The notes beneath the pieces were generated by a model, which made no database searches, had not been told where the DNA came from, and saw only the letters and a list, made by a program, of their open reading frames with translations. Below, one piece after another: positions 6,591 through 62,297 of a stretch of DNA of 64,000 bases. Numbering within the stretch: position 1 is the first letter of the stretch; each line of letters starts with the position of its first letter. The stretch is from Candidatus Saccharimonadota bacterium (GTDB lineage: Bacteria > Patescibacteriota > Saccharimonadia > Saccharimonadales > JAXHMH01). Both the position numbers and the translations under genes were made by a program. The DNA lies in NCBI GenBank assembly GCA_034521515.1, contig JAXHMH010000002.1, forward strand, positions 280,379 through 344,378, written 5' to 3'.

Positions 6591-7640
6591 CTACTCTTTT
6601 TGGCATTTTGTACATATGTGCGTTCCTCTTCCAGCAACTCTTATTTTCTGAATGAATATACCCGGATGACGTGGGCATTGTTGCCCTTCGCGCCTAAATA
6701 CTCGCGCAAAACTGAGATAACTACCGCGCTTTCCCTCGGCGCTGACATAATCTTTATCAGTGCTGCCGCCTTTTTCTATAGCCAGCTCCAGCACATAGCG
6801 CAGTTCTTGAAATAATGTGTTCAGCTTGGCTGCAGGCACATTCTTGACCAGCGTTTTTGGATTAATTTTTGCCCCCCAAAGCGACTCGTCGGCGTAAATA
6901 TTGCCTACTCCGGCAAGAACCGTCTGGTCTAATATTGCTGCTTTTATGTTGGTGTTCTTACGCCGCTGCAAACGTTCTATAAATTGATCGGCAGTAAAAC
7001 TAGTTTCTAGCGGTTCTGGCCCAACTTTTTTCATAAAATCAATGTTAGGAACTTCAATTGTTGGGATAAGTTTGACCCACCCAAACTTGCGTTGGTCATT
7101 AAAGAAAAGATGCGCACCACACTGCTGTGCTTTTTGGCCAAGCCAAAAATCTTGCCAGTGTTCTTGACCTACTGCGGTGTCAACTGCTCCAGTACTCAGG
7201 CGCCGTACGTCATGTACGACTTCTTCCGTGCTTCGCAGTTTCCTTACATTAGACTCAAGTGCATCATCTCTTCCTTGCAGACAGAGTATTACCCTTGTTG
7301 ATTTATCCGGCAGTCTATCAACTAAGCTACTGTTAGGGTGTCCGGCACCAAACCGTTCCTCTTGACGCTTGACGCTTGACGCTTGACGCTTGACGTACAC
7401 CATCTGGCCGGTCATTTTCAAGTGACATACTAGTGAATACTGGCTATCCAGCTCAATCAATAAGACCTTAGCCCGACGCTTCACAGCCGTCACGCAAGCG
7501 CCAATTAAAAACTGCTCAACATCTGACTCGGCGTTCGGAAACGACTTAGCCCAATCATGCCAAACCGCAGCCACTCGTTTTCCAACAATTAGCTCTGATA
7601 ACCCACGCCTGACGGTCTCAACTTCAGGCAACTCTGGCAT
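6591..7640 (-). CDS. mutM: formamidopyrimidine-DNA glycosylase (Fpg/MutM) with a large internal insertion
   Basis: MPELPEVETVRRGL is the catalytic N-terminus (Pro2, Glu3). A C-terminal zinc-finger-like CPRH...CTKC is present. At 349 aa it exceeds the usual ~270-280 aa. Confidence 0.85.
   Translation of the reverse strand: MPELPEVETVRRGLSELIVGKRVAAVWHDWAKSFPNAESDVEQFLIGACVTAVKRRAKVLLIELDSQYSLVCHLKMTGQMVYVKRQASSVKRQEERFGAGHPNSSLVDRLPDKSTRVILCLQGRDDALESNVRKLRSTEEVVHDVRRLSTGAVDTAVGQEHWQDFWLGQKAQQCGAHLFFNDQRKFGWVKLIPTIEVPNIDFMKKVGPEPLETSFTADQFIERLQRRKNTNIKAAILDQTVLAGVGNIYADESLWGAKINPKTLVKNVPAAKLNTLFQELRYVLELAIEKGGSTDKDYVSAEGKRGSYLSFARVFRREGQQCPRHPGIFIQKIRVAGRGTHICTKCQKE
7363..7397. repeat. heptanucleotide tandem repeat (TTGACGC x4 plus one imperfect copy) inside mutM
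   Basis: Read directly from the sequence: ttgacgc ttgacgc ttgacgc ttgacgc ttgacgt. It encodes YVKRQASSVKRQ on the minus strand. Confidence 0.95.
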
Positions 7641-9582: not shown

Positions 9583-10049
9583 TAGTTTCTACCCTTAAAT
9601 GTCACAAACATTCGTTATAAATTAACAATCGACGCCTACCTTAGTGGTAAACGCCGATTGTAAGCGGGTGTGACGGTGTAAGAATCCTATAAAACGTGTT
9701 TTACTCTCGCGGGGACAAGATTACGTAAAACAGCGATTTATAGTTGAGTTTTGGCCTGTCGTTCCCTAGCACACATCACCCTGCTGCAATTGAGTAAGAA
9801 GGGAGTTAGATCGGTTACGCCACTTGCTCGGTTATCACATAGGCGTCCATCTAATAGTGATAACGTCAACGCACCCTAACTCAATTGTGCCCACATTATA
9901 GTACTTTTTGTAATTTATGTCAATGCTTGAGCAGCGTTTACTTAAGCAGTTCCGTAAACTCTGCGGGATACTTATGACTTAGGCGTGTGACTGCCGCCTT
10001 CGCAAACCGGACACCAAAATCAATAATCTCTTTTTCTAGTACCTGCATA

Positions 10050-12712
10050 TTATAGTTCGCCCCAGTTTTTGCCGGTTACTACGTCTACATCTAGTTTTAC
10101 AGGTAAGGTGTGAATGCTTTCCATAGTGGTTTTTAGCATGTCGGCCATGCCTTCCGCCTCTGATTCCGGACATTCAATCAGGATACTGTCGTGGATTTGC
10201 AGCAGCTGCTTGCATGGCGTCCCTTCCAGCTTTTTCTGCACTTCTATCATGGCCATTTTCATCAAATCTGCCTCGGTACCTTGTATCGGCATATTAATGG
10301 CAGCGCGTTCAGCTGCTTGGCGCACCGCAAAATTACTAGAGTGAATATCCGGCATTGGGCGACGGCGACCAAACAGTGTCTCCACATAGCCGTCTTCACG
10401 AGCCTTTTCTTTAAGATGATTCATGTACTCCAAAAGTGGTTTGCGTAGCTCGAAATATTTTTCGATAAAGTGCTGGGCGGCATCGCGCGTCATACCCGTA
10501 GCAATACTTAACCCATGTGGGCTCATGCCATAAAGTACACCAAAATTAATCACTTTAGCGTCACGGCGCATGCTCTTGGTCACTTCATCCGGTTGACGAT
10601 TGTACACTTGGGCGGCGGTAGCGGTATGAATATCGGCACCACCATTAAACATCTCGATTAGCTCGGTGTCGTTTGCCAGATATGCTGCCAAGCGGAGTTC
10701 AAACTGCGAGTAGTCAGCACTGATAAGTACCTTGCCTTTGCCGGCCACAAAAGCAGTGCGAATTCTACGGCCGAGATCTGTGCGAGTTGGTATATTTTGT
10801 AAATTAGGGTCGGTGCTGGATAATCGGCCAGTCTGAGCAATTGTCAGGTTAAACGTGGTATGCAAACGCGAGTTCTCGTCAACCATTTCTGGCAAGGTAT
10901 CAACATATGTATTTTTAAGCTTGGTGACCTCACGATAGTGAGTAATTAAATCAATTATTTCATGCTGTCCACGTAGTTTATCTAACTCACTGGCAGCAGT
11001 TGAGTAACTGGTTTTTCCTTTTTTAATACCTTGAGTTGGCAACTTCAGTTTATTGAACAAAATTTCACTCAATTGTGCCGGGCTACCGATGTTAAACTCT
11101 TCGTCAGCATATCCATAAATCTGCTGCTGCAAATCGCTTATCATGTCATCCAGCTCGTCATTCATCTCTTTTAGGTATTTTGTATCTAGCTCAATACCCT
11201 CGTATTCCATGGCTGCAAGCACCGGAATTACTGGCCATTCTATATCGTGCGCAAGTTTTTTAACTTTTGGCAGACTTTCAAGATCTTTGGCTTGCTGTTT
11301 ATATAACTCATTTATAATCGACAGCACTTCACCGCTACGAGTCACCAAATCTTCGTTAGGCATCTCTTCTAGTGATGAGCCTTCGTAGCCCAGGTCAGCA
11401 CTGGCCAGTTCGGTAAGTGTTTGTTCTCTTCTTAAGCTATTAATCAAAAAGGCACCGACCAGTACATCATGGCCAACATTATGCAGTTGTACTCCAATCG
11501 AATAACAAGCCTTGATAAATGACTTAACATCATAGCCAACCAGCTTCATTGCCGGTAATAAAGCTGCCAAAACAGTCTTGAGCTTATCTGCCGACACCTT
11601 ATCTACGTCAATAACGTACACTGTCTTTCCATCAAAACTAAGTAGCAAGAATTTTGGGTCACGGCCGTGCTTACCAGCGCATCGAGCGTGCACCAGAACA
11701 CTTTCTGACTCAATCCCAGCTATTTTATCTAGAGCCTTGTCTGACTGAATCACAATATGTTTCAAGGGCTTGTTATTCGCATCAGACAAATCAACTTCAT
11801 GGTGTTCTAACACCTGCATAGCTTCAGGTAATTGCCTTACCAAAGTGCGAAACTCAAATTTTTGGAGTGATTCACGTATCTTGTGCGGATCGCAGTTTTT
11901 TACGTCTAAGTTCTTTAAATCAAGCTTGATAGGCGCATCCGTCCAGAGCGCTCCGATTTTTTTGCTCAAATATGCAAGATCTTTACCAGCTACTAATTTT
12001 TTGCGCACACTTTCTTTAATCAGGTCGATGTTTTCATAAACTCCGTCTAGAGTTTTATGATCCTGGAGCAAAGCAACGGCTGTTTTTTCACCAATTCCCG
12101 GAACACCTGGAATATTATCCGAACTATCGCCTTTGAGTGCTTTTAGATCCAAAAATTGTTCCGGCTCTAACCCATATTTCGCCGTGAAGCTTTTTGGACT
12201 GTATAGCTCAATGTTACTTAAGCCTTTTTTAAGCGCAAACACGTGCACGTGCGGATCGATTATTTGAAGCATATCCAGATCAGACGTTACCAACATTGTT
12301 TCGATGTCCTTTTGTTGTAGCTTGAACCGCTGAAGCTGCCCATAATATCGTCCGCCTCATAATCATCTAGCTCATATAGCGGCCAGCCAAAGGCCTGCAA
12401 TAACTCCTGTAATAATGGGATTTGTTCATAAAAATCTGGTGGTGGTGGTTTGCGGCCAGCTTTATATTCGGGGTATATCTCGACACGTTTACGTATATTA
12501 GTTTTGGGCTTATCCCACGCCACACAAACATAGTCTGGCTTAAGCCGCTTGATTACTTCTAGTGCCATAACCGCAAAACCAAAAACCCCGCCAGTTGGCG
12601 TACCATCTTTTGTGCTCAAATACGGCATCGCATAATAACCACGATAAAAAACACTCTTGCCATCTATAATGGCGAGTTTTTTCTTCCTAGTATTCACCGC
12701 CGACTCACTCAT
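10050..12712 (-). pseudogene. polA: DNA polymerase I, split into two ORFs by a frame break inside the 5'-nuclease domain
   Basis: ORF 12287-12712 carries the 5'-nuclease N-terminal half (ending EADDIMGS). ORF 10050-12296 continues with LVTSDLDMLQ, the H3TH motif GIGEKTA and polymerase motifs DYSQFELR and RRDAKVINFGVLYG. The frames join if one A is added to the AAAA run at 12310-12313. Confidence 0.7.
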
Positions 12713-21056: not shown

Positions 21057-21941
21057 ATGGCGTATTATATATATATGACTCGCATCAAAACTAAATTTGT
21101 TCGTTATTTGCTTACTGTTTTTGGGATTTTATTCATTGCGACCATAATTGCGTTATTTTGGACAAACAATACCGGCGCTCCCGGCCAAAACGAATCTCAA
21201 CAGAACTCTCAGCCTGCCGCTATTGAAGAAGTGGAAGTAGTTGAGCCCCTTGAACCGGTTGTCGATTTACAACCTACGGTTGATACATGGACTTCTGAGC
21301 AATCCGGTGTTGCAAGTGTTGTAATCTATGACCTGACCGCCGAGGAAGAGGTAGCGTCGCATAATCCAGACAAGATTTACTTTGGTGCCAGTATCTACAA
21401 ACTTTATGTAGCTTATATCGGCTACCAGAAGATTGCCGACGGTACATATAGTCAAGCTGAACCTTATTATGGAGATTTGACCCGTGGAGATTGCTTGGAC
21501 GAAATGATACGGACATCTCATAGCCCTTGCGCAGAAAAGATGCGCTTGGAGCTTGGAATAGATTGGCTCGATAAAACTTTGCAGGACTACGGTATTCAAC
21601 ACTCCGCTATGGGTGATATTAGTACATCGGCTAGTGACGTATCGCGTATACTTCGCCGCTTATACGAACGCCGTGATCTTACCAATGAACACGCGGATGC
21701 AATGCTCGCATCCTTGAAAGACCAGATATATCAAGATGCACTAAAGGCTGGTTTTTCAGAGTCAACCGTACATAACAAAGTGGGCTTTCGAGGGTTAGTC
21801 GAGTACCATGATGTTGCAGTTGTGGAGTTCCAAAGTGGACAAGCTTATGTTATGAGCGTCCTTTCAGAAAATATCGGCGCACAAAATATTGCAGATCTGG
21901 CTACTCGCGTTGAGACAGCCGTGCTAGATGCAATCGAATAA
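21057..21941 (+). CDS. serine hydrolase, class A beta-lactamase-like
   Basis: N-terminal transmembrane helix and the S-x-x-K motif in FGASIYKLYVA. Confidence 0.55.
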   Translation: MAYYIYMTRIKTKFVRYLLTVFGILFIATIIALFWTNNTGAPGQNESQQNSQPAAIEEVEVVEPLEPVVDLQPTVDTWTSEQSGVASVVIYDLTAEEEVASHNPDKIYFGASIYKLYVAYIGYQKIADGTYSQAEPYYGDLTRGDCLDEMIRTSHSPCAEKMRLELGIDWLDKTLQDYGIQHSAMGDISTSASDVSRILRRLYERRDLTNEHADAMLASLKDQIYQDALKAGFSESTVHNKVGFRGLVEYHDVAVVEFQSGQAYVMSVLSENIGAQNIADLATRVETAVLDAIE

Positions 21942-21971: not shown

Positions 21972-22739
21972 ATGTCAAAAAAAGCTGTACTAATCACCTC
22001 TATTGTTAGCCTAGGCCTTCTGTTAGCCGGATTGTTTTTATACTTCACACAAATAGTAAAAGAGGATGCGCCACGTGAGACTTCTCACCAAGCTCCTGTT
22101 TCTAATACAGAGGAGGAGTCAAATGATGAACCGGACGAAGCGGCGTTTGATAAGACAACTTACTCGCTAACCGAACCCGGCAGTATCTGGCAGGTTGTTA
22201 ATAAGCAACGAGCCATATCAGCCAATTATGTGCCTGACGATCTTGTGGTGCCAAATGTTCGCCTACGTTTAGCGGCTAGCGCTGAACAAATGCAATTTAG
22301 AGAGGTGGCTACTGACGACCTAGAAACTATGTTTTCTGCAGCAGACCAAGAAGATATCATTTTGGTGTTTGGTAGCGGGTATCGTTCATACCAGCTACAA
22401 AAACAGTTCTACGACAGCTACGTTGCTCGTGATGGTCAAGCTGCGGCCGACCGTTACTCTGCCAGACCAGGAACCAGCGAACACCAAACTGGTATAAGTT
22501 TTGATGCCACTATCCCAGACCAGACATGCCACCTAGAAATTTGTTTTGAGGATACACCACAAGGCCAGTGGTTGGCTGAAAATGCTCACAAATACGGCTT
22601 TCATTTGCGCTACCGTGAGGGCAAGGAAAGCATTACTGGCTACCAGTACGAACCGTGGCACTTCCGCTACGTCGGCAAGGATCTCGCCAACGAGCTTCAC
22701 CGGCTCGATCTCACCATGGAAGAATTCTTCAACCTCTAA
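21972..22739 (+). CDS. D-alanyl-D-alanine carboxypeptidase, M15B/VanY family
   Basis: SGYRSY, ARPGTSEHQTGISFD and EPWHFRYVG are the metal-site motifs. Confidence 0.8.
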   Translation: MSKKAVLITSIVSLGLLLAGLFLYFTQIVKEDAPRETSHQAPVSNTEEESNDEPDEAAFDKTTYSLTEPGSIWQVVNKQRAISANYVPDDLVVPNVRLRLAASAEQMQFREVATDDLETMFSAADQEDIILVFGSGYRSYQLQKQFYDSYVARDGQAAADRYSARPGTSEHQTGISFDATIPDQTCHLEICFEDTPQGQWLAENAHKYGFHLRYREGKESITGYQYEPWHFRYVGKDLANELHRLDLTMEEFFNL

Positions 22740-22786
22740 AAAGGCTTATGCTTGCGGTGCGCCCCTTGAAAGCGTACTGTAAAAAT

Positions 22787-23053
22787 ATGGAGAATATCAC
22801 AGAACAACCATTCGATGCCTCACTGGGTGAAACAACCGTTGCACGACACCCAGGCGTATTTGGTAGATTGGGTAACCTCGTATGCTTACCTGACAATAAC
22901 GAAGAATACTCTACCTACCGCGAAAAGCGCGATATGGCCTGGGAGTCAACATTCGATGCAGACGGTCAAGCGCCGCACTGGGTACATGACTATCGCTACG
23001 AACCGGCTGACTGCCCCCGTTTAAATAAATGCGGCGACTGCCCAAACAAATAG
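22787..23053 (+). CDS. hypothetical small protein
   Basis: 88 aa counted from the internal Met (MENITEQPF...). The upstream part of the ORF overlaps the VanY gene. No family recognised. Confidence 0.35.
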   Translation: MENITEQPFDASLGETTVARHPGVFGRLGNLVCLPDNNEEYSTYREKRDMAWESTFDADGQAPHWVHDYRYEPADCPRLNKCGDCPNK

Positions 23054-23059
23054 AACCAA

Positions 23060-23850
23060 TAATTGTATAGTTTGTCGGCTTCATGCCGAACAGTCTGAAT
23101 ACGCAAGTCGGCTTGCGTATTCAGCAAATTCGAAATTTTAGGCTAGCGAAAGACGTTTCGACGGTCGCTTACAGCGACCTGTCCGACATACTTTCTTGTG
23201 TTGACAAGAAAGTAAGCAAAGAAACAACTGGCGACTGAAAAACACTGTAGCCTGTCTGAGCACGTCCAGGTCGCGGTCGCAAAGAACTCCCGCTGGTCGG
23301 TTCTGTTCTATTTTCTTAGTTACCTCGAACAGAACTGACTTTGCAGCAATTACTCGACCTGGTCGAACTCGCCAGGCTCCGGTTTTTCAGAGCCAGAACT
23401 CCGTGATGTACCAAACGGTACATCACGTATAGGAGTGTTCTTAGTTAAGAACACATTTAGTTGGGGTCACATCTGAAAGACAGAAGCGAAGGAGTGCTGG
23501 TTGGACGAGTCAAGCCGGTAGTCAAGCTCCGCCAAAGTAACTAGAAAAACTGGCGGAGCCGCTTGTCGTTCTGCCGGCGCGGCCAACCAGTGCTGCTTCG
23601 TGCTCTTGTTCTTTCAGTCGTGACGAGGTTTTTGGTTACTTTTGTCGGTAAAAAAGTAACAGGGTATTTGATTCTCCCGGCCTTCGCAGCAGTAAGCCTA
23701 TTTCCAAGACCTGGTCTTGGAAATAGCGATAATATTGTATAACTATCTTGTTGTTCGCTATGGCGGAGTAGGCTTGGAAGAGAAGGTTAACAGAAGCTTT
23801 CGTTTGCGGTGTTTTACTAAACGCGCCAGTCGAGTGGCGCGTTTAAATTG
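23060..23850. other. hairpin-dense non-coding tract (candidate large structured RNA or decayed palindromic-element cluster)
   Basis: At least 11 perfect or near-perfect stems were read directly. They lie at 23095-23124 (13 bp), 23163-23179, 23190-23213, 23300-23335, 23402-23427 (11 bp), 23435-23454, 23526-23559, 23635-23660, 23698-23726 (14 bp) and 23818-23845. A long imperfect pair joins 23466-23504 with 23583-23624. Confidence 0.6.
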
Positions 23851-24039
23851 CAGGCTATTAACGCTGCGTTGTTAGGTGATAGCCAGAACAAACCGGGCAT
23901 CTGTAGACACGGGTAGGTTTTTGGATATTTTTTAAGGTAAAAATTCAACGAGATAGAAGGTCGCCTAGGAGACAGCCGAAAGTATTGCTGAATCAAAGTG
24001 GAATATATTTTGTATTCTAGAATAAGCTGAAAAACAATT

Positions 24040-25227
24040 TTAGTATTCATCCGAACCAATAACCGGTACCTCTATATATCGGTTGAGAATTTGTTGCACC
24101 CATTGCGTCTGAGCTTCAACCGTAGTGTCGTGCGTACTTTGACGCAAAAGCTCGTCAGCTTGGTCTAGTGGCACCATAGAAAAGTTGTGGCGAGATAATA
24201 AATCTTCTTCTTCGCGCTGCTGAGCCGTCCATTCATAGTGTTGATACACCGGCATAAATTCTACGTTTTCGACAAATAGCTCCTCCTGATTGATATCAAT
24301 TATTGCAAAGCCACCTATCAAAGTCTCAATATCAATCTGGGAGTTTAAGAAGTTACCAAGTGAGAACCAAACAATCCCTTCCCGGCCGTTTGTGTCAGCT
24401 ATTCGTTTAACTGGTTGCAACACATGTGGGCCGTGTCCAAAAACAAAATCCGCGCCGGCGTTCACAACTTCTTGGGCAATCTCATTTTGCTCAGTATTTA
24501 TTTCAGTGCTGTACTCGGTGCCCCACCGCATACTCACGATTACAAAATCAACTTCGTCACGAGCGGCAGAGATTTCTTGCTGTGCCGTCTGTGAGTCATA
24601 CATGTTTAGCCCGTACGGCGTTAGATTCTGGTTATTGCTATAGGTTGTGTAAGCCAAAAAGCCAAAACTTACGCCATCAACTGTAAAAGTTCTAAGCTGT
24701 GCCTGTTCTTCTGCCGATCTGTTAGCTCCAGCATACGCCAAAACACCATCTTGGCGCTCCCATTCAGCTACCGTAGCATCAATCTGTCGCTTCCCCTTAT
24801 CGTTAATGTGATTTGACGCTAAATTAACGACGTTGCAACCAACTTTCACCATGTCTTGAGTGAATGCAAATGGTGCATTAAATACCGGGTAACCACTGAT
24901 GCCAAGCCTTTCGCCCCCTGCAGCGGTAGCTTGGTTGCAAAATCTCACATCAGCTTGCTGAAAGAAAGGTTGCATATCACTCATAAGCGATAAATAATCA
25001 TAGCTACCATCATCTTGACGAGCGTTTTCATTGATAGAGTCATGGGCGATCATGTCACCGGTCGCCACAATTCTGAGCAGACCATCGTCAGCCTCTGTTT
25101 CAGACTGCCCAGACTCAGGCTGCTCACTCATTTCCGTACTGTCATCACGAATCGCAAACCACCAGCCGGTAAAAACTAATCCGCCGGCCACAAGAGCAAC
25201 CAGTACGATTAAAGCAATCTTTTTCAT
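24040..25227 (-). CDS. CapA-like metallophosphoesterase, membrane-anchored (paralog of 19834-21012)
   Basis: N-terminal transmembrane helix, IVATGDMIAHD, NLASNHINDKG and FGHGPHVLQ motifs. Confidence 0.65.
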   Translation of the reverse strand: MKKIALIVLVALVAGGLVFTGWWFAIRDDSTEMSEQPESGQSETEADDGLLRIVATGDMIAHDSINENARQDDGSYDYLSLMSDMQPFFQQADVRFCNQATAAGGERLGISGYPVFNAPFAFTQDMVKVGCNVVNLASNHINDKGKRQIDATVAEWERQDGVLAYAGANRSAEEQAQLRTFTVDGVSFGFLAYTTYSNNQNLTPYGLNMYDSQTAQQEISAARDEVDFVIVSMRWGTEYSTEINTEQNEIAQEVVNAGADFVFGHGPHVLQPVKRIADTNGREGIVWFSLGNFLNSQIDIETLIGGFAIIDINQEELFVENVEFMPVYQHYEWTAQQREEEDLLSRHNFSMVPLDQADELLRQSTHDTTVEAQTQWVQQILNRYIEVPVIGSDEY

Positions 25228-27029: not shown

Positions 27030-28688
27030 TTATAGCCTATCTGGCGCCGGTATACCAAGAAGCTGCAAACCATCTTTTAAAACGTCGGCATATTGTTTAA
27101 CTATCGCCACCCGGATAGATTCTCGCTTATCACCGATAACTCGGTTGTGTTCATAAAACCGATTAAACTGCTGCGCAAGTTCATATAGATAGTTACAAAC
27201 ATGGTGCGGCATTAATTCTACGACAGCTTTTTGTAACATATCTTCGTATTCAGTAATCTTGCGGACAAGTGTTCGCTCATCTGATTCAAGTTCAACTTCC
27301 TGTTTTGTAGTCTGTTTGGCTTTCGCAAGAACACTTCGAGCTCGAGCGTGGGCATATTGCAAATACGGGCCAGAGTTACCTTCCAGGCTTATAGCATCGT
27401 TAATGTCAAAAATAACATCGCCACCAACACGTACCCTCAACATTGTGTAGCGTAAGGCACCGATAACTCCGTCAGCAACAGTTGATTCATTTTTAGTCCG
27501 ACGACGAATCGCCTTTTCAAGCTCATCAAACAACCAACCAATATTTATGGCTGTCCCTTTACGTGAACTCATTTTTCCAGTAGCCAACTTCACCATACCG
27601 GTCGATATATTATACGTCTCGCTGTTGATATCCGTCATAGAAAGCTCGGCTGCTTTTAAAACAACTTTAAAATATTCTTGTTGTTCATTGGCTGTCACAA
27701 CGTAACTTGATTGCGGGCGAAACTCGTACTCTTTCAATTGTATAAGACCGAGATCGCGAGCTTCATAAAGCGTGTTGTCACGAGCATTGATAAAAACCCT
27801 GGTGTGTAAATCGTACTTCTCGCCTGGGAAAATCACTGCACCATCGCTTTTTTCAAAAACCTTTCCAATATGACGTTCCACGATAGATCGACCTACTCGG
27901 TCTGTTTCGCGTTCCAGATATTGTCGTTTTGTAGGCTTACTGCCCAACGCTTTAAAAGCTTGGTTAAAATAATCAAAACTCCATTGCTTACAAGTTTCGT
28001 AAACTTGTTCAAACAACGGGTCATCAAGCACAAAGGATTGTTGAGCCAACACTTCAATTTGCTCCTTTGCCAAATCATCTTTTTCGTAGGTGTCAGCTCC
28101 TTCAGCATACATTTTGCTCAGAAACGTCGAGCGCTCGCTTTCTGCTATAGCACCAAGCGAAGCCGGATTATTATCAATTGATCTGAGTATCGCCCACATG
28201 CTTTTGCCAACATGTAAACCAACGTCGCCGTGATAGCTAACTCGATGAACGCTACCTTGACCCGCCTCAAGTAAATTGGCAATGCTATCAGCAACAATGG
28301 AATTGTAAGCATGGCCTATGTGTAAATCCTTGAACGGATTAGGGTTATTTGTCTCGATGACAATATCTTGTTCAAAATAATTTACTGGTGGCCTTATACC
28401 GGCATACAACTCGTCTAGTAACGCTTGGTCGCTTAACCTAAAGTTTATAAAACCCGGCCCGGCAACACTAATGTCATCAATATCTGTATTTAGTATATCT
28501 CGTAATTTACCAACTAACTCTTCGGCGACTGTTTGTGGTGATTTACCGACTTTTTTACTCAACTGCAGTGCAATATTGGTTGCATAATCACCAAATTGTT
28601 CATCCGTACGATTCAGTTCCGGATTTATGTCAATATTGTATACATTTTTTGCTGTTTCCCGTAAGCTGGTGGATATTTTTTTCCTCAT
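27030..28688 (-). CDS. argS: arginine--tRNA ligase
   Basis: HIGH-type motif NPFKDLHIGHAYN, an MSSRKG (KMSK-like) motif, and a C-terminal anticodon-binding domain with a terminal RL. Confidence 0.9.
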   Translation of the reverse strand: MRKKISTSLRETAKNVYNIDINPELNRTDEQFGDYATNIALQLSKKVGKSPQTVAEELVGKLRDILNTDIDDISVAGPGFINFRLSDQALLDELYAGIRPPVNYFEQDIVIETNNPNPFKDLHIGHAYNSIVADSIANLLEAGQGSVHRVSYHGDVGLHVGKSMWAILRSIDNNPASLGAIAESERSTFLSKMYAEGADTYEKDDLAKEQIEVLAQQSFVLDDPLFEQVYETCKQWSFDYFNQAFKALGSKPTKRQYLERETDRVGRSIVERHIGKVFEKSDGAVIFPGEKYDLHTRVFINARDNTLYEARDLGLIQLKEYEFRPQSSYVVTANEQQEYFKVVLKAAELSMTDINSETYNISTGMVKLATGKMSSRKGTAINIGWLFDELEKAIRRRTKNESTVADGVIGALRYTMLRVRVGGDVIFDINDAISLEGNSGPYLQYAHARARSVLAKAKQTTKQEVELESDERTLVRKITEYEDMLQKAVVELMPHHVCNYLYELAQQFNRFYEHNRVIGDKRESIRVAIVKQYADVLKDGLQLLGIPAPDRL

Positions 28689-37038: not shown

Positions 37039-37204
37039 GGCCGGAACCCGGACGGGCGACGTTGCAAACACGTGATGCAACGAAACCCGTCCGGGACCCG
37101 GGCTTGGTAGAAGAACGTCTTTTGGACAAAACGTCGCAGGCCATCGCCTCCGTTTCTTCTCACTATTACCAATTCAACCAAGCCCACACTCACTTTTTGT
37201 ATTT

Positions 37205-37232
37205 AAACAGCCCCTAAAGCTAGGGGCTGTTT
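37205..37232 (+). terminator. hairpin terminator candidate
   Basis: AAACAGCCCCTA (37205-37216) pairs with TAGGGGCTGTTT (37221-37232), a 12-bp stem, followed by a T-rich tail. Confidence 0.5.
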
Positions 37233-37356
37233 ATATTTAGCGTTCAGTTTATTACTGTCTACGGCCAGATGAATATGCTCCACTCTGTTCTTGATCGCCA
37301 CTAAGAATGGGCTCCGCCTCTTTCGTGGAAGCTATAGCTCCGTCAGGTTAGCTGAA

Positions 37357-37512
37357 CTAGCTCCACGGAAGTGGCTGCGCTCCCGATCCAGCAGCACGGT
37401 CTTGCGCGACTTCTTCACGCCAAGCCTCAACCGTAGCTACCTCATCTGGAGTTTTTGCTCCAGCTGCTAATTCATCAACAGCTAATTCTGCGGGAGATTT
37501 TTCTGCACTCAT
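37357..37512 (-). CDS. small ORF (51 aa), hypothetical
   Basis: Hand translation gives MSAEKSPAELAVDELAAGAKTPDEVATVEAWREEVAQDRAAGSGAQPLPWS, with AAAGGAA upstream of the ATG. It falls below the ORF-track length cut-off. Confidence 0.25.
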   Translation of the reverse strand: MSAEKSPAELAVDELAAGAKTPDEVATVEAWREEVAQDRAAGSGAQPLPWS

Positions 37513-37599
37513 TTGTAGTTCCTTTTTGATTTTTTATGTTAGTGATAACGATAACTATACTATCAGTTGTTTATCGTTTTGTCAAGTTTGTGTTATTAA

Positions 37600-47039: not shown

Positions 47040-47115
47040 AATACGTGTACTTCGACTACGTACTCGACAATTAGCTACATAGCTTTCATAAATGAACCTC
47101 AAATAATCTCTTAAT

Positions 47116-47156
47116 CTCCCCCTTTGTTCACGATCGTGAACAAAGGGGGAGGTTTT
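47116..47156 (+). terminator. rho-independent terminator of the 45960-47039 gene
   Basis: CTCCCCCTTTGTTCACG pairs with CGTGAACAAAGGGGGAG (17 bp), followed by GTTTTT. Confidence 0.8.
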
Positions 47157-47219
47157 TGGTTGATAGTTTTATCTATTTGAACCTGCTAATTGCCTGATTG
47201 TTTAGATCTAAATTCAAAT

Positions 47220-47443
47220 CCACCGTTTCAACAGAAACAAAAAAACCCACCTGAACAGTGGGTTCTTTTCTTCCTGGCTTGTCACCCATCGATCTTGAGC
47301 CTCAGGGTCGAAAGATGAGCCTGTCGAATGGGCTTGCCGTGAGCCTGTCGAATGGACTTGCCATGAGCTTGTCGAATGGGCCTGCCGTGAGCCTGTCGAA
47401 TGGGCTTGCCATGAGCCTGTCGAATGGCGGAAGGAGAGGGATT
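47220..47443 (-). repeat. orphan tRNA-Ser trailer
   Basis: On the tRNA-sense (minus) strand the order is as follows. First ATCCCTCTCCTTCCGCCA-type 3' end (47425-47443). Then four TTCGACAGGCTCAYGGCARGYCCA units (47317-47424), then one long unit (47275-47316). Last comes a 58-bp block that also occurs at 47546-47603. Confidence 0.9.
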
Positions 47444-47600
47444 ATAGCCTCAGGCCAGGCAGCCTATTTTGTCTAGTTACTTTGGCTGCTTGGCTTCAGC
47501 ATATAATCTCGCTAACCGCTCGATTATCTGAACCCGGGTTCGAACCCACCGTTTCAACAGAAACAAAAGAACCCACCTGAACAGTGGGTTCTTTTCTTCC

Positions 47601-47691
47601 TGGCGGAAGGAGAGGGATTCGAACCCTCGGTGCCGTTGCCGGCACAACTGTTTTCGAGACAGTCCAGTTCGACCACTCCTGCACCCTTCCA
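47601..47691 (-). tRNA. tRNA-Ser (anticodon CGA), CCA encoded
   Basis: Hand fold: acceptor GGAAGGG/TCCTTCC, anticodon stem ACTGT/ACAGT, loop CTCGAAA, long variable arm, T-arm GAGGG TTCGAAT CCCTC. Confidence 0.9.
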
Positions 47692-48282: not shown

Positions 48283-50016
48283 TTAAGAGCTATCAATAGG
48301 CTGCTTCTTAGTAAAACGCTCCTTTAGGTTAGCGATGTCATAACGCCATTCCCATACTCCATAGCCTGCAGCTAACGCCACCATAAAGCCGGCAAACCAC
48401 CAACTCAGCGGTGTCGGACGCGCCACCGTTGTAACATCACGCACGTTCATCTCCGGCAGTTCGGTCATCGCTGCTGCCACATTCCGGCAGCGGTTAGTTT
48501 CTGGATTGCGTTCTTGCCCAGGACTACACGGCTTTAGCCCGGACGTTTGATTAATATTACGGCAACGGTTAGTTTCTGGGTTTCTTTCCTGGTGAGGCTT
48601 ACAAGGTACCAGTTGGCGGGTACTACTTGTTACAGAACGGCATCTGTTTGTTTCTGGATTGCGTTCTTGCCCAGGACGGCATGGCACTAGGGAAGAGCCA
48701 GAGTCAATCTTCCGGCAACGGTTCGTCTCTGGATTGCGTTCTTGATCCGAATCACACGGCTTGAGCTCAGAGGTGCTGCTCACGATATTGCGACAACGAC
48801 CGGTATCTGGATTGCGCTCCTTACCTTCCTTGCAATCGGCGTATTCTTGATATTTATTCTCTTGACCCAGGGTTAGTTCATAAGTCTGCCGCCAGTCATC
48901 ATCACCAAACCAAGCCCATGAGGTTTCCGGCCGTAAATCAGAATATTTCTGGGCATCAACCTCTTCTTGTCCGTCAGATGACAATACATATACTGTGCCG
49001 GTAGTTGTTTTGGTAAGTGTCAGTTCCGTGTTTGCAATCTGTATCGTCAAATAATCATGCGGCTCTACAACCTCATCGGCAAACACATAGGTGTTATCGT
49101 TGCGATTGGTTTGCAACTGGCAACCATCCAACTCAGCTTCCTGGTTGGTCAGATTATGCAGCTCTATGAACTGTTCGTCTAAGTTAGCTCCAATTTCAGA
49201 TATCACTACACCCTCGCAAATGTTTATGTCGTCTTCTGGTGCCGTTTCTTGATCAGTATCGAGCTCTTTATCAACCTTTTGGCTTAAATCATCGTCGGGT
49301 TCATCCTCAGGCTTTTCACCGGACTGTTCTTCAGGTTCTTCCTCATCGTCTGGCTCAGGATCAGGCTCAGGCAAGGGACATTCCAGACCAGCTCCGGGCA
49401 TAGGTATCTCGTTGATGGTAAAATCAAGCGCGTTATTACCGGTATCAACTATCAGGCCATCCTGGCCAAAACACCGTATAAGGGACTGGTCTGGCTGCGG
49501 CGCCCCAGCTGGGCTCGTAAGGTAATGCTCGGGGTCACCGTAGCCAACCATATCTACAAGCTCCCCGTCGTTATCAAACAGCCTGATAGTCCCATCATGG
49601 TAGTTTAAGTAACCTGAGGCTGTCCGAGAATCGAGTAGGAAATTCGCCTCCGGCAGATAGCTTTCATAGCTCACCACAAAAAACCCATCAGGCTGTATTT
49701 CGTAACCTACATCTGCATCAGAATCATCCTCAAACAAGACTATAGAACGGGTTGTTGTGCCCTTTTCATTTGCAAACTCTAGCTCCCACCCATCAAGCGA
49801 TACGGTCTCATTGTGCGGGTTATATAGCTCTATAAACTCGTGAGTTCCAACTACGCTACCAGCATCTTCTCCGTCATCTACTGTGCCTCTGTTTTGAAAC
49901 TCACTAATCAAAATCAATGTTTCCGTTGCCGGGGAGTCCTCTGCAACGGCACCGGCAGCCCAAAATAACGGCAAAACAAATCCCAAAACCAGTGCCCATA
50001 CCCACCGTTTGTTCAT
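48283..50016 (-). CDS. surface protein with two lamin-tail-like domains, five Cys-bracketed repeats and a C-terminal membrane anchor
   Basis: Signal peptide. LTD-like segments (HEFIELYNPHNETVSLDGWELEF and EQFIELHNLTNQEAELDGCQLQ). Five copies of C-x4-(Q/K)ERNP(E/D)T(N/G)RCR. A terminal transmembrane helix. Confidence 0.7.
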   Translation of the reverse strand: MNKRWVWALVLGFVLPLFWAAGAVAEDSPATETLILISEFQNRGTVDDGEDAGSVVGTHEFIELYNPHNETVSLDGWELEFANEKGTTTRSIVLFEDDSDADVGYEIQPDGFFVVSYESYLPEANFLLDSRTASGYLNYHDGTIRLFDNDGELVDMVGYGDPEHYLTSPAGAPQPDQSLIRCFGQDGLIVDTGNNALDFTINEIPMPGAGLECPLPEPDPEPDDEEEPEEQSGEKPEDEPDDDLSQKVDKELDTDQETAPEDDINICEGVVISEIGANLDEQFIELHNLTNQEAELDGCQLQTNRNDNTYVFADEVVEPHDYLTIQIANTELTLTKTTTGTVYVLSSDGQEEVDAQKYSDLRPETSWAWFGDDDWRQTYELTLGQENKYQEYADCKEGKERNPDTGRCRNIVSSTSELKPCDSDQERNPETNRCRKIDSGSSLVPCRPGQERNPETNRCRSVTSSTRQLVPCKPHQERNPETNRCRNINQTSGLKPCSPGQERNPETNRCRNVAAAMTELPEMNVRDVTTVARPTPLSWWFAGFMVALAAGYGVWEWRYDIANLKERFTKKQPIDSS

Positions 50017-52268: not shown

Positions 52269-52312
52269 AACTATAACATAACACTAACTAAGCTGTTCTA
52301 ATCATCGATTAA

Positions 52313-52349
52313 GCTAAACGCGCCAGTCGAGTGGCGCGTTTAGCTTTTT
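52313..52349. terminator. hairpin (GCTAAACGCGCCA / TGGCGCGTTTAGC) with a T-run; its 29-nt core is also present at 23817-23845
   Basis: A 13-bp stem read directly, with TTTTT on the plus side. It lies 18-23 nt downstream of the minus-strand gene 52367-52696. Confidence 0.55.
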
Positions 52350-53022: not shown

Positions 53023-53099
53023 GCACCCGTAGCTCAGCTGGATAGAGCGTCTGTTTGCGGTACAGGAGGTCGTAGGTTCGAATCCTGCCGGGTGTACCA
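53023..53099 (+). tRNA. tRNA-Arg (anticodon GCG by hand fold), CCA encoded
   Basis: Acceptor GCACCCG/CGGGTGT, D-arm GCTC AGCTGGATA GAGC, anticodon stem TCTGT/ACAGG, loop TTGCGGT, T-arm GTAGG TTCGAAT CCTGC. Confidence 0.85.
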
Positions 53100-53105
53100 C
53101 GTTAA

Positions 53106-53130
53106 AACCCGCCCATTTGGTCGGGTTTTT
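53106..53130 (+). terminator. rho-independent terminator after tRNA-Arg
   Basis: AACCCG pairs with CGGGTT, followed by a T-run. Confidence 0.7.
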
Positions 53131-53144
53131 GCGTGGTTCTTTTC

Positions 53145-53287
53145 GGCAGGTTCGGTTCTACGACTCAGCAGCTTGCTGATGAAAGTCGTAGGTTCGGCGT
53201 AGCGAAGTGCAGAAAAGAAAGCACCGTAGGTATTTTCTTTTCAAGCTAGCGGAGGAGGCTTTAGCCGCTATCCTGCCGGGTGTACCA
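53145..53287 (+). repeat. tRNA-Arg-derived structured module M1 (T-arm split by a 73-nt two-hairpin insertion, ends in the tRNA-Arg 3' end with CCA)
   Basis: gtcgtaggttcg (53185-53196) equals tRNA positions 53069-53080. atcctgccgggtgtacca (53270-53287) equals tRNA positions 53082-53099. The insertion 53197-53269 lies inside the T-loop. Confidence 0.8.
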
Positions 53288-53300
53288 GGAGAAATATAAG

Positions 53301-53323
53301 CCACCTTGCAAAAGGTGGTTTTT
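53301..53323 (+). terminator. rho-independent terminator directly after module M1
   Basis: CCACCTT pairs with AAGGTGG, followed by TTTTT. It starts 14 nt after the M1 CCA. Confidence 0.7.
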
Positions 53324-53372
53324 ATTTCTGCTCGATGCTCGAGCCGGGATTTGAACCGTCAAGCGAGCTTAT

Positions 53373-53523
53373 GCGGGCGGAAGGTTCGGTGTAGCGCCGC
53401 TCAGCCGAGAAAGCGCTTTAGCATTTTCTCGGCAAGCAAGCGGAAAAGGACTTTAGTCCGCTATCCTGCCGCCCGCCTGTCTTTCTGGCAAGAAGGCCAG
53501 ACAGGACGGACAGGGGTGTACCA
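53373..53523 (+). repeat. tRNA-Arg-derived structured module M2 (homolog of M1, with an extra 38-nt hairpin element before the final GGTGTACCA)
   Basis: gcgggcgg-aaggttcgg, then a 73-nt insertion, then atcctgccgcccgc. The 38-nt element follows at 53477-53514, then ggtgtacca at 53515-53523. Confidence 0.75.
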
Positions 53524-53687
53524 CTACTGAGTTTTCTGTCATTATGTTATTAAACATCCCCATAGAGCGGGGTCAATATGTCCTGGACGGATGTAAATGT
53601 AAAATATTGATATATATCGATGATTTTGCTAGTATTTCTGGTAAGACCTTCGGCCGTGGTTTCTAAGCCACACTGCGGAAGGCCTTT

Positions 53688-61064: not shown

Positions 61065-61089
61065 GTACGAGACATCGTACCATCAATCA

Positions 61090-61370
61090 CAAAGCTTCAG
61101 GCTTGAGTGCAGCATCCAGAGCCACGTGCTTGGTGGCTCTGCGCGGCGCAAATGAAGCACGGACCGGGTTCGTTGAACGAACACCGTAAGGCTCCGAACA
61201 GTGCGTCCAGAGGTTCAGGCTTGAGTGCGGTGTGGTCATATGACTGAGGAGGCGCAGTAAAGCGTACATTTAGTACGCTGCACGAGCACCGGAAGTCATA
61301 TGGCCGCAATGCGCCAAGAATATCGGCAGAGCTCGTGGCTCGGCCACGAGACAGACCGATATGACCTGAA
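61090..61370. other. GC-rich multi-hairpin intergenic segment (candidate ncRNA, strand unknown)
   Basis: Stems at 61120-61140 (GAGCCAC/GTGGCTC), 61168-61183, 61262-61278 and 61331-61349 (CTCGTGGC/GCCACGAG). The last of these is nested inside ATATCGG/CCGATAT at 61321-61361. The 15-mer ttcaggcttgagtgc occurs at about 61096 and 61213. Confidence 0.4.
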
Positions 61371-61508
61371 TCTCTGGGGTGTTGTTATTAATGTGTTGTA
61401 AATAATAGCTCAAACTGTTGCTACTCCGGCCCCATTCAAGCTATACTTACAACTAACAAAAAACGCAAACTGATTAACATATAATCTGAAACGTGGAGGG
61501 TACCACTT

Positions 61509-61997
61509 ATGGCGCGGAAAGATCGCGATGAAGATCTATTAATGGAAGACGAGCTGACAGCAGCTTTTCTTGGTGATGAAGATATGGCACCGGCACAAAC
61601 CGACAACGGACAACAAGCTCCTCAAGCGGGCGATGGCGGAGTTACAGAGGATTGGGACGAGGACGATGCAGTCCCAGGACAATTAGCAGTAGACGTATAC
61701 GAGACTAAAGAGAAGCTCGTCGTCAAAGCTCGAACTGCTGGCGTCAACAAGAGTGAACTAGATGTCAGTATCGCCGACAATACACTTAGTATCCGCGGAA
61801 CTCTGTCTGCAGGTAACGAGGAAGATGTTGAGAATTATTTTGTTCAAGAGTGTTACTGGGGCGAATTTAGCCGCAGCATCGCCTTGCCAGTACCCGTCAA
61901 AGAAGAAGAGATTGAGGCAGTCCTAAAAGACGGTGTGCTTACTATCAGCTTTACTAAGGTCAAGCAAGATACCGTCAAGAAAATTCAAATCCAGTAA
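61509..61997 (+). CDS. small heat-shock protein (Hsp20/alpha-crystallin)
   Basis: DVYETKEKLVVKARTAGVNKSELDVSI...GEFSRSIALP...GVLTISF. GGAGGG ribosome-binding site, and TATAAT at 61480-61485. Confidence 0.85.
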   Translation: MARKDRDEDLLMEDELTAAFLGDEDMAPAQTDNGQQAPQAGDGGVTEDWDEDDAVPGQLAVDVYETKEKLVVKARTAGVNKSELDVSIADNTLSIRGTLSAGNEEDVENYFVQECYWGEFSRSIALPVPVKEEEIEAVLKDGVLTISFTKVKQDTVKKIQIQ

Positions 61998-62021
61998 AAC
62001 AAACACTGATTACATAAAAAC

Positions 62022-62056
62022 ACCCGCAGCTACACGCAGCCGCGGGTGTTTTTATT
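62022..62056 (+). terminator. rho-independent terminator of hsp20
   Basis: ACACCCGC pairs with GCGGGTGT, followed by TTTTT. Confidence 0.8.
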
Positions 62057-62297
62057 TGGCGTGAGCACTTATTATAGCGTCAGCTTTAGTGACTATAATA
62101 TAGAACCACTGTGTCGCATGGACACCAGTAAACTACCCGTGTGAACCTCAGCTGAAACGTAAAAAAACGCAAACCATACATATAGACGCATAAACACCGG
62201 CTAAACCCAACAAAAGGCAGAATCAGAAGGTAGACTAGCCAAACATAAACCCCGCTAAAATTGAGCGGGGTTTATGATCTAGATCGAGTATTACTGT

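Follow-up and report, generated by a model that had tools for sequence, protein, structure and literature searches.

The 64,000 nucleotides analysed here (the window) belong to the genome of an uncultured Candidatus Saccharibacteria bacterium, which was assembled into one contig of 706,252 bp (locus tags U5K77_, GenBank proteins MDZ77444xx). The present work concerns the spacer bounded by two convergent genes, one for a VanY-type D-Ala-D-Ala carboxypeptidase on the + strand and one for a CapA protein on the - strand, and in particular a tract of about 800 bp within it, crowded with palindromes, which follows a small gene encoding a protein with a cysteine motif (Table 1). The original prediction had described this region as about 1 kb of DNA without a credible open reading frame (ORF), packed with perfect hairpins, and had proposed for it either a large ornate non-coding RNA or a graveyard of palindromic elements.

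Sixteen perfect hairpins (stem of 9 bp or more, loop of 8 nt or less) were found in the 64-kb window and seven of them were inside 23095-23845, while shuffled windows contained 1.75 +/- 1.2 such hairpins per 64 kb. Their density was about 9 per kb in the tract, versus 0.05 per kb over the roughly 137 kb of fetched loci, including those of nine relatives. The feature is real and extreme, and the cluster is well above chance. The predicted folding energy of 23054-24039 was -382 kcal/mol for the + strand (z-score of -11.9 with respect to shuffled sequences) and -342 kcal/mol for the - strand (z -9.4), the excess over shuffles being nearly symmetric between strands (about -95 and about -90 kcal/mol respectively). 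Sub-segments reached z-scores of -5.2 to -7.4 on either strand for 23060-23624, and of -2.1 to -3.7 for 23625-23920. The structured portion was thus 23060-23850, for which the description as hairpin-packed holds; it does not hold for 23900-24039, which was unstructured (z +0.4).

The five stems named in the original prediction (Table 1) were all located where it had placed them, and the long-range pairing that it had suggested between ccaggtcg (23265-23272) and cgacctgg (23355-23362) was part of a longer pairing within a 169-nt extended hairpin. The perfect Watson-Crick stems were 9-14 bp long, with loops of 1-8 nt (TCGG, GTTG, AAAC, AGTT, CTG, GTCGAG), and no GNRA or UNCG sequence could be read among the short loops of the tract. 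These stems were also predicted to be stable as single-stranded DNA (-5 to -14 kcal/mol). No modular or tandem repeats internal to the tract were detected besides the palindromes, direct 7-8-mers were only mildly enriched, and the cumulative GC skew did not turn at the tract.

The lack of a credible ORF was borne out: 12-25 stop codons were present per frame, in all six frames, and included all three kinds of stop in every frame, so that an altered genetic code rescues no ORF; a hidden ORF read through a recoded stop was discarded for this reason. GenBank annotates one 51-amino-acid (aa) hypothetical protein in the tract (U5K77_01510), a doubtful ab initio gene call that crosses three perfect hairpins, including those at 23095-23124 and 23189-23214, and that had no Pfam, PHROG, NCBIfam or PDB match. 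The other small ORFs of the tract had no Pfam match. Comparison with Rfam, proposed in the original prediction with the large RNAs GOLLD, ROOL, HEARO and OLE in mind, gave no match either: the Rfam 15 library, which is meant to include these families, returned nothing in the tract at gathering scores (whole window), and four sub-threshold chance matches at E <= 10 over 22900-24200, the best being mir-137 (22.7 bits vs. a cut-off of 56.7). The tract was unmatched by blastn in phage and plasmid collections, and viral contigs gave zero exact matches to three of its hairpin patterns. A metagenome scan with the central palindrome gave three matches in unrelated contigs, which were set aside as chance. 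Promoter-like and terminator-like sites were as frequent in the tract as expected from shuffles. Integron attC cores (RYYYAAC ... GTTRRRY) were absent from its hairpins and no integrase was found among the window ORFs scanned. The best window matches to four dif consensus sequences reached 18-19 of 28 positions and none was within the tract; a module flanked by XerCD/dif sites (IMEX) was rejected for lack of a dif-like site. A literature search on structured RNAs or palindromic elements in Saccharibacteria and other bacteria of the candidate phyla radiation (CPR) found nothing relevant.

The gene neighbourhood (ArgRS, GDH, MsrB and CapA, facing VanY) is shared by nine Saccharimonadales relatives, whose CapA proteins are 44-61% identical to that of the window, with nothing closer in the protein database. 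The tract is absent from all nine. In eight, the ends of the CapA and VanY coding sequences either abut or are separated by no more than about 140 nt, so that 22740-24039 is a lineage-specific insertion; it is made up of the small accessory gene with the cysteine motif (22787-23053), followed by the hairpin core (23054-23850) and then by a spacer without structure. The ninth relative (L001) is the only one with a gene at this position, a 120-aa ORF (7268-7630 of that locus). The N-terminus (MGNTTEQ..LGETS) and C-terminal AEGASPQW of its product weakly resemble the 88-aa protein of the window (BLASTP E = 0.006 and 0.1 respectively); it lacks the cysteine motif and its orientation is opposite to that of the 88-aa gene.

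An alternative arrangement of the same spacer was found in a sister strain, in run SRR26473340, the only one in the Logan assemblies with this organism. On the VanY side, 5,681 nt of contig L019 agreed with the window at all but 2 positions (99.965%), up to base 22737; the contig departed from it at 22738, in the second position of the VanY stop codon (TGA vs. TAA). In the final 97 nt of this contig, about 8 bases without a match preceded the reverse complement of 23716-23794, with a blastn core at 23716-23772 (52 of 57 positions, 91%, E = 3e-16) and indels distally to 23794; the contig terminated within the 14-bp palindrome at 23698-23726. On the CapA side, contig L008 showed 1 mismatch in 3,209 nt with respect to the window and halted at 23975. 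The flanks therefore differed by 3 bases in 8.9 kb (about 0.03%), while the module common to both strains was inverted and had diverged by about 10%. In the predicted inner hairpin of this module, three of the four substitutions at paired sites broke the pair, one changed G-U to G-C and none was compensated (the comparison extended over 57-79 nt and one weak sub-helix). The covariation check in orthologous spacers that the original prediction had proposed gave, accordingly, no support for a conserved RNA: the nine relatives offered no tract to align, and this module no compensatory change. As far as one weak sub-helix can indicate, the divergence, inversion and pair-breaking changes look like fast-turnover DNA, not constrained RNA. 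The small protein had no member in Logan, so the left part of the tract and the gene for this protein are probably missing from the sister strain. Another structured gap of the window (61230-61508), taken as a control, was matched by contig L020 at 100%. Logan contigs L008, L019 and L020 ended at or near large palindromes (61230, 62233 and inside 23698-23726), which indicates that hairpin-rich gaps systematically fragment k-mer assemblies of this genome.

The 88-aa ORF is a genuine gene. The codon score in its reading frame (0.142) was inside the range of genes and exceeded that of every off-frame window. A full HMMER scan recovered P0122, P0123 and P0125 as distant homologues (E = 6e-9 to 9e-5), with which it shares an invariant C...CPR...C..CP. 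A 96-aa homologue (P0127) occurred, with identical sequence, beside several different left flanks, each time convergent with a gene encoding a helix-turn-helix (HTH)-Fic protein and twice near TraG/type IV secretion system (T4SS) genes, and the gene for P0123 was located near a large serine recombinase. Judged from these neighbourhoods, the family is an accessory one that moves between contexts. No match for it was obtained in PHROG or in viral loci, and a viral origin of the small gene was discarded on these grounds. The regions downstream of the homologous small genes were not hairpin-rich (z -1.8 to +1.5), and no residual similarity to a decayed HTH-Fic gene, the usual partner of the homologues, was detected in the tract; hairpins are thus no fixed companion of the small gene, and the idea that the tract travels with it was ruled out by the unstructured DNA downstream of the homologues. 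In other Saccharibacteria contigs (loci L021-L030 and L015), the Cys-motif gene and the convergent HTH_3-Fic gene formed a conserved two-gene cassette in varying contexts (twice beside genes for TraG/T4SS or PLD nuclease, once near a large serine recombinase). The Cys-motif protein belongs to no Pfam, PHROG or NCBIfam family, and the cassette is an accessory or mobile Saccharibacteria module without a name.

One hairpin of the tract is dispersed. Comparison of 22740-24040 with the rest of the window by blastn and nhmmer showed that 23817-23845 was identical, in 29 of 29 nt including the loop, to 52314-52342. Its stem (23818-23845) is followed by TTTAAATT when read along the + strand, and by TTTAGTAAAA along the - strand. 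The hairpin was not flagged by the terminator scanner; it was built like hairpins located just past gene ends at 37204, 47565 and 62244, and is therefore probably a terminator. The two copies suggest a small dispersed terminator-like element, as far as their sequences allow.

Table 1. Genes, hairpins and structured gaps in the window. Positions are those of the 64,000-nt stretch; z-scores are with respect to shuffled sequences.
Feature	Position	Strand	Remarks
Beta-lactamase-like gene	21057-21941	+	Rightward, precedes VanY
VanY-type D-Ala-D-Ala carboxypeptidase gene	21972-22739	+	Pfam VanY, E = 3.9e-43; left flank; left breakpoint of the insertion at its stop codon
Cys-motif protein gene, 88 aa (MDZ7744417.1, U5K77_01505)	22787-23053	+	Cargo gene of the insertion
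Hairpin-dense non-coding core	23054-23850		7 of the 16 perfect hairpins of the window
Hypothetical ORF, 51 aa (MDZ7744418.1, U5K77_01510)	23083-23238	+	GenBank annotation; doubtful
Perfect hairpin, 13 bp, loop TCGG	23095-23124	n/a	DNA fold -13.7 kcal/mol
Perfect hairpin, 11 bp, loop GTTG	23189-23214		
Extended imperfect hairpin, 169 nt	23228-23396		-73.9 (+) and -75.7 (-) kcal/mol; z -7.2 on both strands; contains pairing 23258-23273 / 23355-23370 and inner stem 23296-23339
Perfect hairpin, 11 bp, loop AAAC	23402-23427		
Perfect hairpin, 8-9 bp	23435-23454		
Extended imperfect hairpin, 159 nt	23466-23624		-81.1 (+) vs. -68.2 (-) kcal/mol; z -7.1; contains a 12-bp perfect segment and inner 9-bp stem 23526-23559
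Perfect hairpin, 9 bp, 8-nt loop	23635-23660		
Module M, extended hairpin	23680-23795		z about -3 (for 23680-23785); holds the 14-bp palindrome; its right half, 23716-23794, is inverted beside VanY in the sister strain
Palindrome, 14 bp	23698-23726		Arms 1 nt apart
GC-rich terminator-type hairpin	23817-23845		11 bp perfect, 14 bp at 93% (23818-23845)
Spacer downstream of CapA	23851-24039		Weakly structured or unstructured; at least 23975-24039 common to the sister strain (L008 matches the window down to 23975)
CapA / PGA_cap gene	24040-25227	-	Pfam PGA_cap, E = 1.7e-60; right flank, convergent with VanY
Structured gap	37039-37599		z (+ strand) -4.6; terminator-type hairpin 37204-37233, long perfect helices
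Structured gap	47040-47603		z (+ strand) -5.3
Second copy of the terminator-type hairpin	52311-52346		15-bp stem, then TTTTT (+); between two - strand genes
Structured gap	53097-53687		z (+ strand) -11.4
Structured gap	61065-61508		z (+ strand) -9.3
Structured gap	61998-62297		z (+ strand) -6.2; terminator-type hairpin 62244-62276, long perfect helices

The original prediction had considered a non-coding tract of this size conspicuous because the genome is compact. This premise stood only in part, since compactness is not uniform: about a dozen ORF-less gaps longer than 250 nt were present in the window, several of them structured to a comparable degree (Table 1), with a density of long Watson-Crick helices similar to that of the tract but lower. 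Rfam matches in the other structured gaps were tRNAs only. Perfect hairpins outside the tract amounted to about 0.14 per kb in the window versus about 0.03 per kb in the loci of relatives (about 5-fold). Hairpin richness is thus a property of the intergenic DNA of this genome, suggesting a lineage-wide tendency to accumulate palindromes.

Several of these gaps showed features of their own. Two tandem units of about 97 nt (53186-53282 and 53378-53475), with conserved cores AGGTTCGGYGTAGCG and CCGCTATCCTGCCG, lie downstream of a tRNA (53023-53096); their consensus fold had 28 pairs, five with compensatory changes between the copies. They had no Rfam match, and a covariance model built from them found no copy in the tract and no third copy in the window. 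On the strength of this modelled fold they are a candidate new structured RNA motif or tRNA-linked repeat. The gap at 47040-47603, which adjoins a tRNA (47604-47690, - strand), contained a 24-nt unit (TGAGCCTGTCGAATGGGCTTGCCG) repeated in tandem about 5 times (about 47290-47420), a direct repeat of 57 nt that includes a terminator hairpin and has an att-like look (47220-47276 and 47547-47603), and a 36-nt perfect loopless palindrome (47116-47151). The gap at 61065-61508 precedes an HSP20 gene (61509-61997) as a leader of 444 nt with no ORF; it has a near-continuous hairpin of about 190 nt (61197-61386), a repeated TTCAGGCTTGAGTGC motif and no Rfam match, was identical in the Logan strain over 61230-61508 and may be a thermosensing or regulatory 5' untranslated region. 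A c-di-GMP-II riboswitch aptamer was detected above the Rfam gathering score at 9800-9885 on the - strand (58.8 bits), in a 497-nt gap upstream of a gene encoding 748 aa (10050-12296). Several genes (e.g. those at 21972, 27030-28688 and 48283-50016) had no Shine-Dalgarno sequence and carried a TATACT-like -10 box about 10-20 nt from the ATG, suggesting leaderless or very short-leader mRNAs.

On balance we lean towards reading the tract as palindromic accessory DNA that acts at the DNA level, varies between strains and was inserted together with a small mobile cargo gene, with an incidental role as a two-way transcription stop. Of the two possibilities raised originally, DNA-level elements fitted better than a non-coding RNA with the perfect stems, the tiny loops, the strand symmetry and the rearrangement between strains. 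The palindromes would be mutually unrelated objects distributed over about 800 bp, not helices of one conserved RNA gene, and would arise and stay perfect through inverted duplication or template switching, through the insertion of small hairpin-type non-autonomous elements, or both. Since transcription of the two flanking operons runs into the tract, its stems would also fold in read-through RNA and, together with the probable GC-rich terminator hairpin at 23818-23845, may serve as a two-way transcription stop and 3'-end protector. We infer both the mechanism generating the palindromes and the insulator or terminator role.

Some observations weigh against this reading. By inspection, neither terminal inverted repeats nor target-site duplications were present at the flanks of the hairpins or at the ends of the insertion, and no transposase, RAYT or recombinase was found among the 10 window ORFs scanned beside other gaps or in the syntenic neighbourhood. 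Except for 23817-23845, no stem or module had a second copy in the 64-kb window, i.e. in the 64 of 706 kb (about 9% of the genome) covered by the search; a graveyard of one dispersed REP- or MITE-type family is thus supported for a single hairpin and not for the other stems. The absence of the tract from relatives is a weak test, because the best CapA identity was only 61%, and the alternative allele of the sister strain is known over 97 nt only. The five compensatory pairs at 53186-53475 imply that the organism may carry real structured RNAs. There was, finally, a bias towards the + strand: the minimum free energy structure had 36 G-U pairs on the + strand vs. 18 on the - strand, wobble-compatible transitions between arms favoured the + strand by 18 vs. 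4 (about 7-9 vs. 3 in helices chosen without strand bias), and the hairpin at 23466-23624 was better by 13 kcal/mol on the + strand. This bias is weak evidence of constraint at the RNA level. It is largely a matter of composition, since the + strand has more G than C and the means of the shuffled sequences were already 35 kcal/mol apart; an assignment of strand from the G-U pairs, which would point to +, was abandoned for this reason and because the choice of helices was itself strand-biased.

The same figures form part of the case for the main rival, one or more new lineage-restricted large structured RNAs, transcribed from the + strand between about 23060 and the terminator-type hairpin at 23818-23845 and belonging to a set of several in this genome. 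The z-score of -11.9 on the + strand, the G-U and wobble biases, the better + strand fold of 23466-23624, the terminator-type hairpin with which the structured part ends when read along the + strand, and the existence of equally structured gaps in the window, one with compensatory pairs between tandem copies, would all be accommodated. We nevertheless consider such RNAs unlikely, if deserving of real weight, and the large ornate non-coding RNA of the original prediction fared poorly: the energy excess was strand-symmetric, the stems were long and perfect without GNRA or UNCG loops, promoter-like sites were no commoner than in shuffles, no Rfam family matched, nine relatives lacked the tract, and in the sister strain the shared module was inverted and about 10% diverged, with pair-breaking changes left uncompensated. 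In a more speculative version, which we rate as rather unlikely, the lineage would carry fast-evolving and very large hairpin-array RNAs, at 23060-23845 and similarly at 53097-53687, 61065-61508, 47040-47603 and 37039-37599, and the rearrangement between strains would reflect diversifying selection (on decoy or defence-related RNAs, for instance) instead of neutral turnover.

A third possibility is that the tract is what remains of a mobile element's non-coding cis region, for example a single-strand origin, an oriT or a packaging/intergenic region of filamentous-phage type, which arrived with the cargo gene and whose hairpins act in single-stranded DNA. The cargo family does occur in accessory and mobile contexts (TraG/T4SS, serine recombinase, Fic cassette), the tract and the gene are jointly absent from relatives and probably from the sister strain, and the mixture of imperfect hairpins of 100-170 nt with short perfect ones is, we assume, comparable to that of single-strand origins or filamentous-phage intergenic regions. 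This origin is improbable given that the adjacent genes include none for replication or transfer and none from phages, with synteny otherwise preserved, that the DNA downstream of the homologous small genes was unstructured, that phage and plasmid collections did not match the tract and viral contigs contained neither the three hairpin patterns nor the protein family, and that no dif-like site or residual Fic coding signal was found. The opposite orientation of 23716-23794 in the Logan strain, the contig end inside the 14-bp palindrome and the inverted repeats filling the tract could also be taken for an invertible switch of the shufflon or inverton type, whose segments flip between inverted repeats in the population; we regard this as very improbable. 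The inverted copy was about 10% diverged, with indels, and was joined to VanY through about 8 unrelated bases, a misfit with a clean reversible inversion; moreover, no recombinase was present in the ORFs scanned or in the syntenic neighbourhood, and most of the supposedly invertible segments would be almost wholly stem. An assembly artefact in the 706-kb contig of this metagenome-assembled genome (MAG) is scarcely credible. Short-read contigs of the sole run do stop on either side of the tract (22836 and 23975) without reproducing it, but the small gene has native codon usage and real homologues, 23716-23794 is present independently in the short-read data, though inverted, the window has an exact second copy of one tract hairpin, Logan contigs are also interrupted at other palindromes and yet match the MAG at 100%, and artefacts do not create many different perfect stems of 10-14 bp.

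If the DNA-level reading holds, the tract would be a compact natural example of the accumulation and turnover of palindromes in a very small, host-dependent CPR genome, in which strains otherwise 99.97% identical differ by the rearrangement of palindromic modules at a single convergent gap. This has a bearing on genome stability, on the tolerance of hairpins and on metagenome assembly, short-read contigs being broken at such sites. It is also a warning for the discovery of non-coding RNAs: a folding z-score near -12 is not enough to identify an RNA gene. Were the less favoured RNA reading true, several large structured RNAs would be added to a phylum for which almost none has been described.

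Several known systems resemble the tract in part. The cis-acting regions of replicons with a single-stranded DNA phase (single-strand origins of rolling-circle plasmids, the intergenic region of filamentous phages, oriT) are likewise ORF-less, several hundred bases long and made of different extended imperfect hairpins, and the tract adjoins a gene family known from mobile contexts; it differs from them in having no Rep, relaxase or phage genes and no phage or plasmid match, and homologous small genes occur elsewhere without such a tract. Large RNAs such as OLE, GOLLD, ROOL, HEARO/omega RNA and raiA are similar in length (0.6-0.8 kb), in their many stems, in very strong predicted folding and in their intergenic position, but the tract matched no covariance model, is not conserved in the relatives and varies between near-identical strains, and it has long perfect stems, non-canonical tetraloops and a strand-symmetric energy excess. 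Bidirectional intrinsic terminators share with 23818-23845 a GC-rich stem, an A/T-rich extension and a location between converging operons; one of them would suffice, however, and the more than 10 other hairpins of the tract are AT-richer, have no T-runs and were not flagged above shuffle expectation. Arrays of REP/BIME sequences and hairpin-type MITEs (Correia, RPE, ERIC, BOX) form families with many copies and a consensus, whereas all stems of the tract but one are unique in the 64 kb, and the tract lacks a conserved GTAG-type head, target duplication and terminal inverted repeats; neither a transposase nor a RAYT gene was seen. As in these arrays, non-coding stem-loops are packed in a gap, and a convergent one in particular; the tract is extragenic and shows presence/absence variation (it is missing from nine relatives and rearranged in a 99.97%-identical strain); its stems would fold in read-through mRNA and could act as terminators or stabilisers; and one of its hairpins (23817-23845) has an identical dispersed copy.

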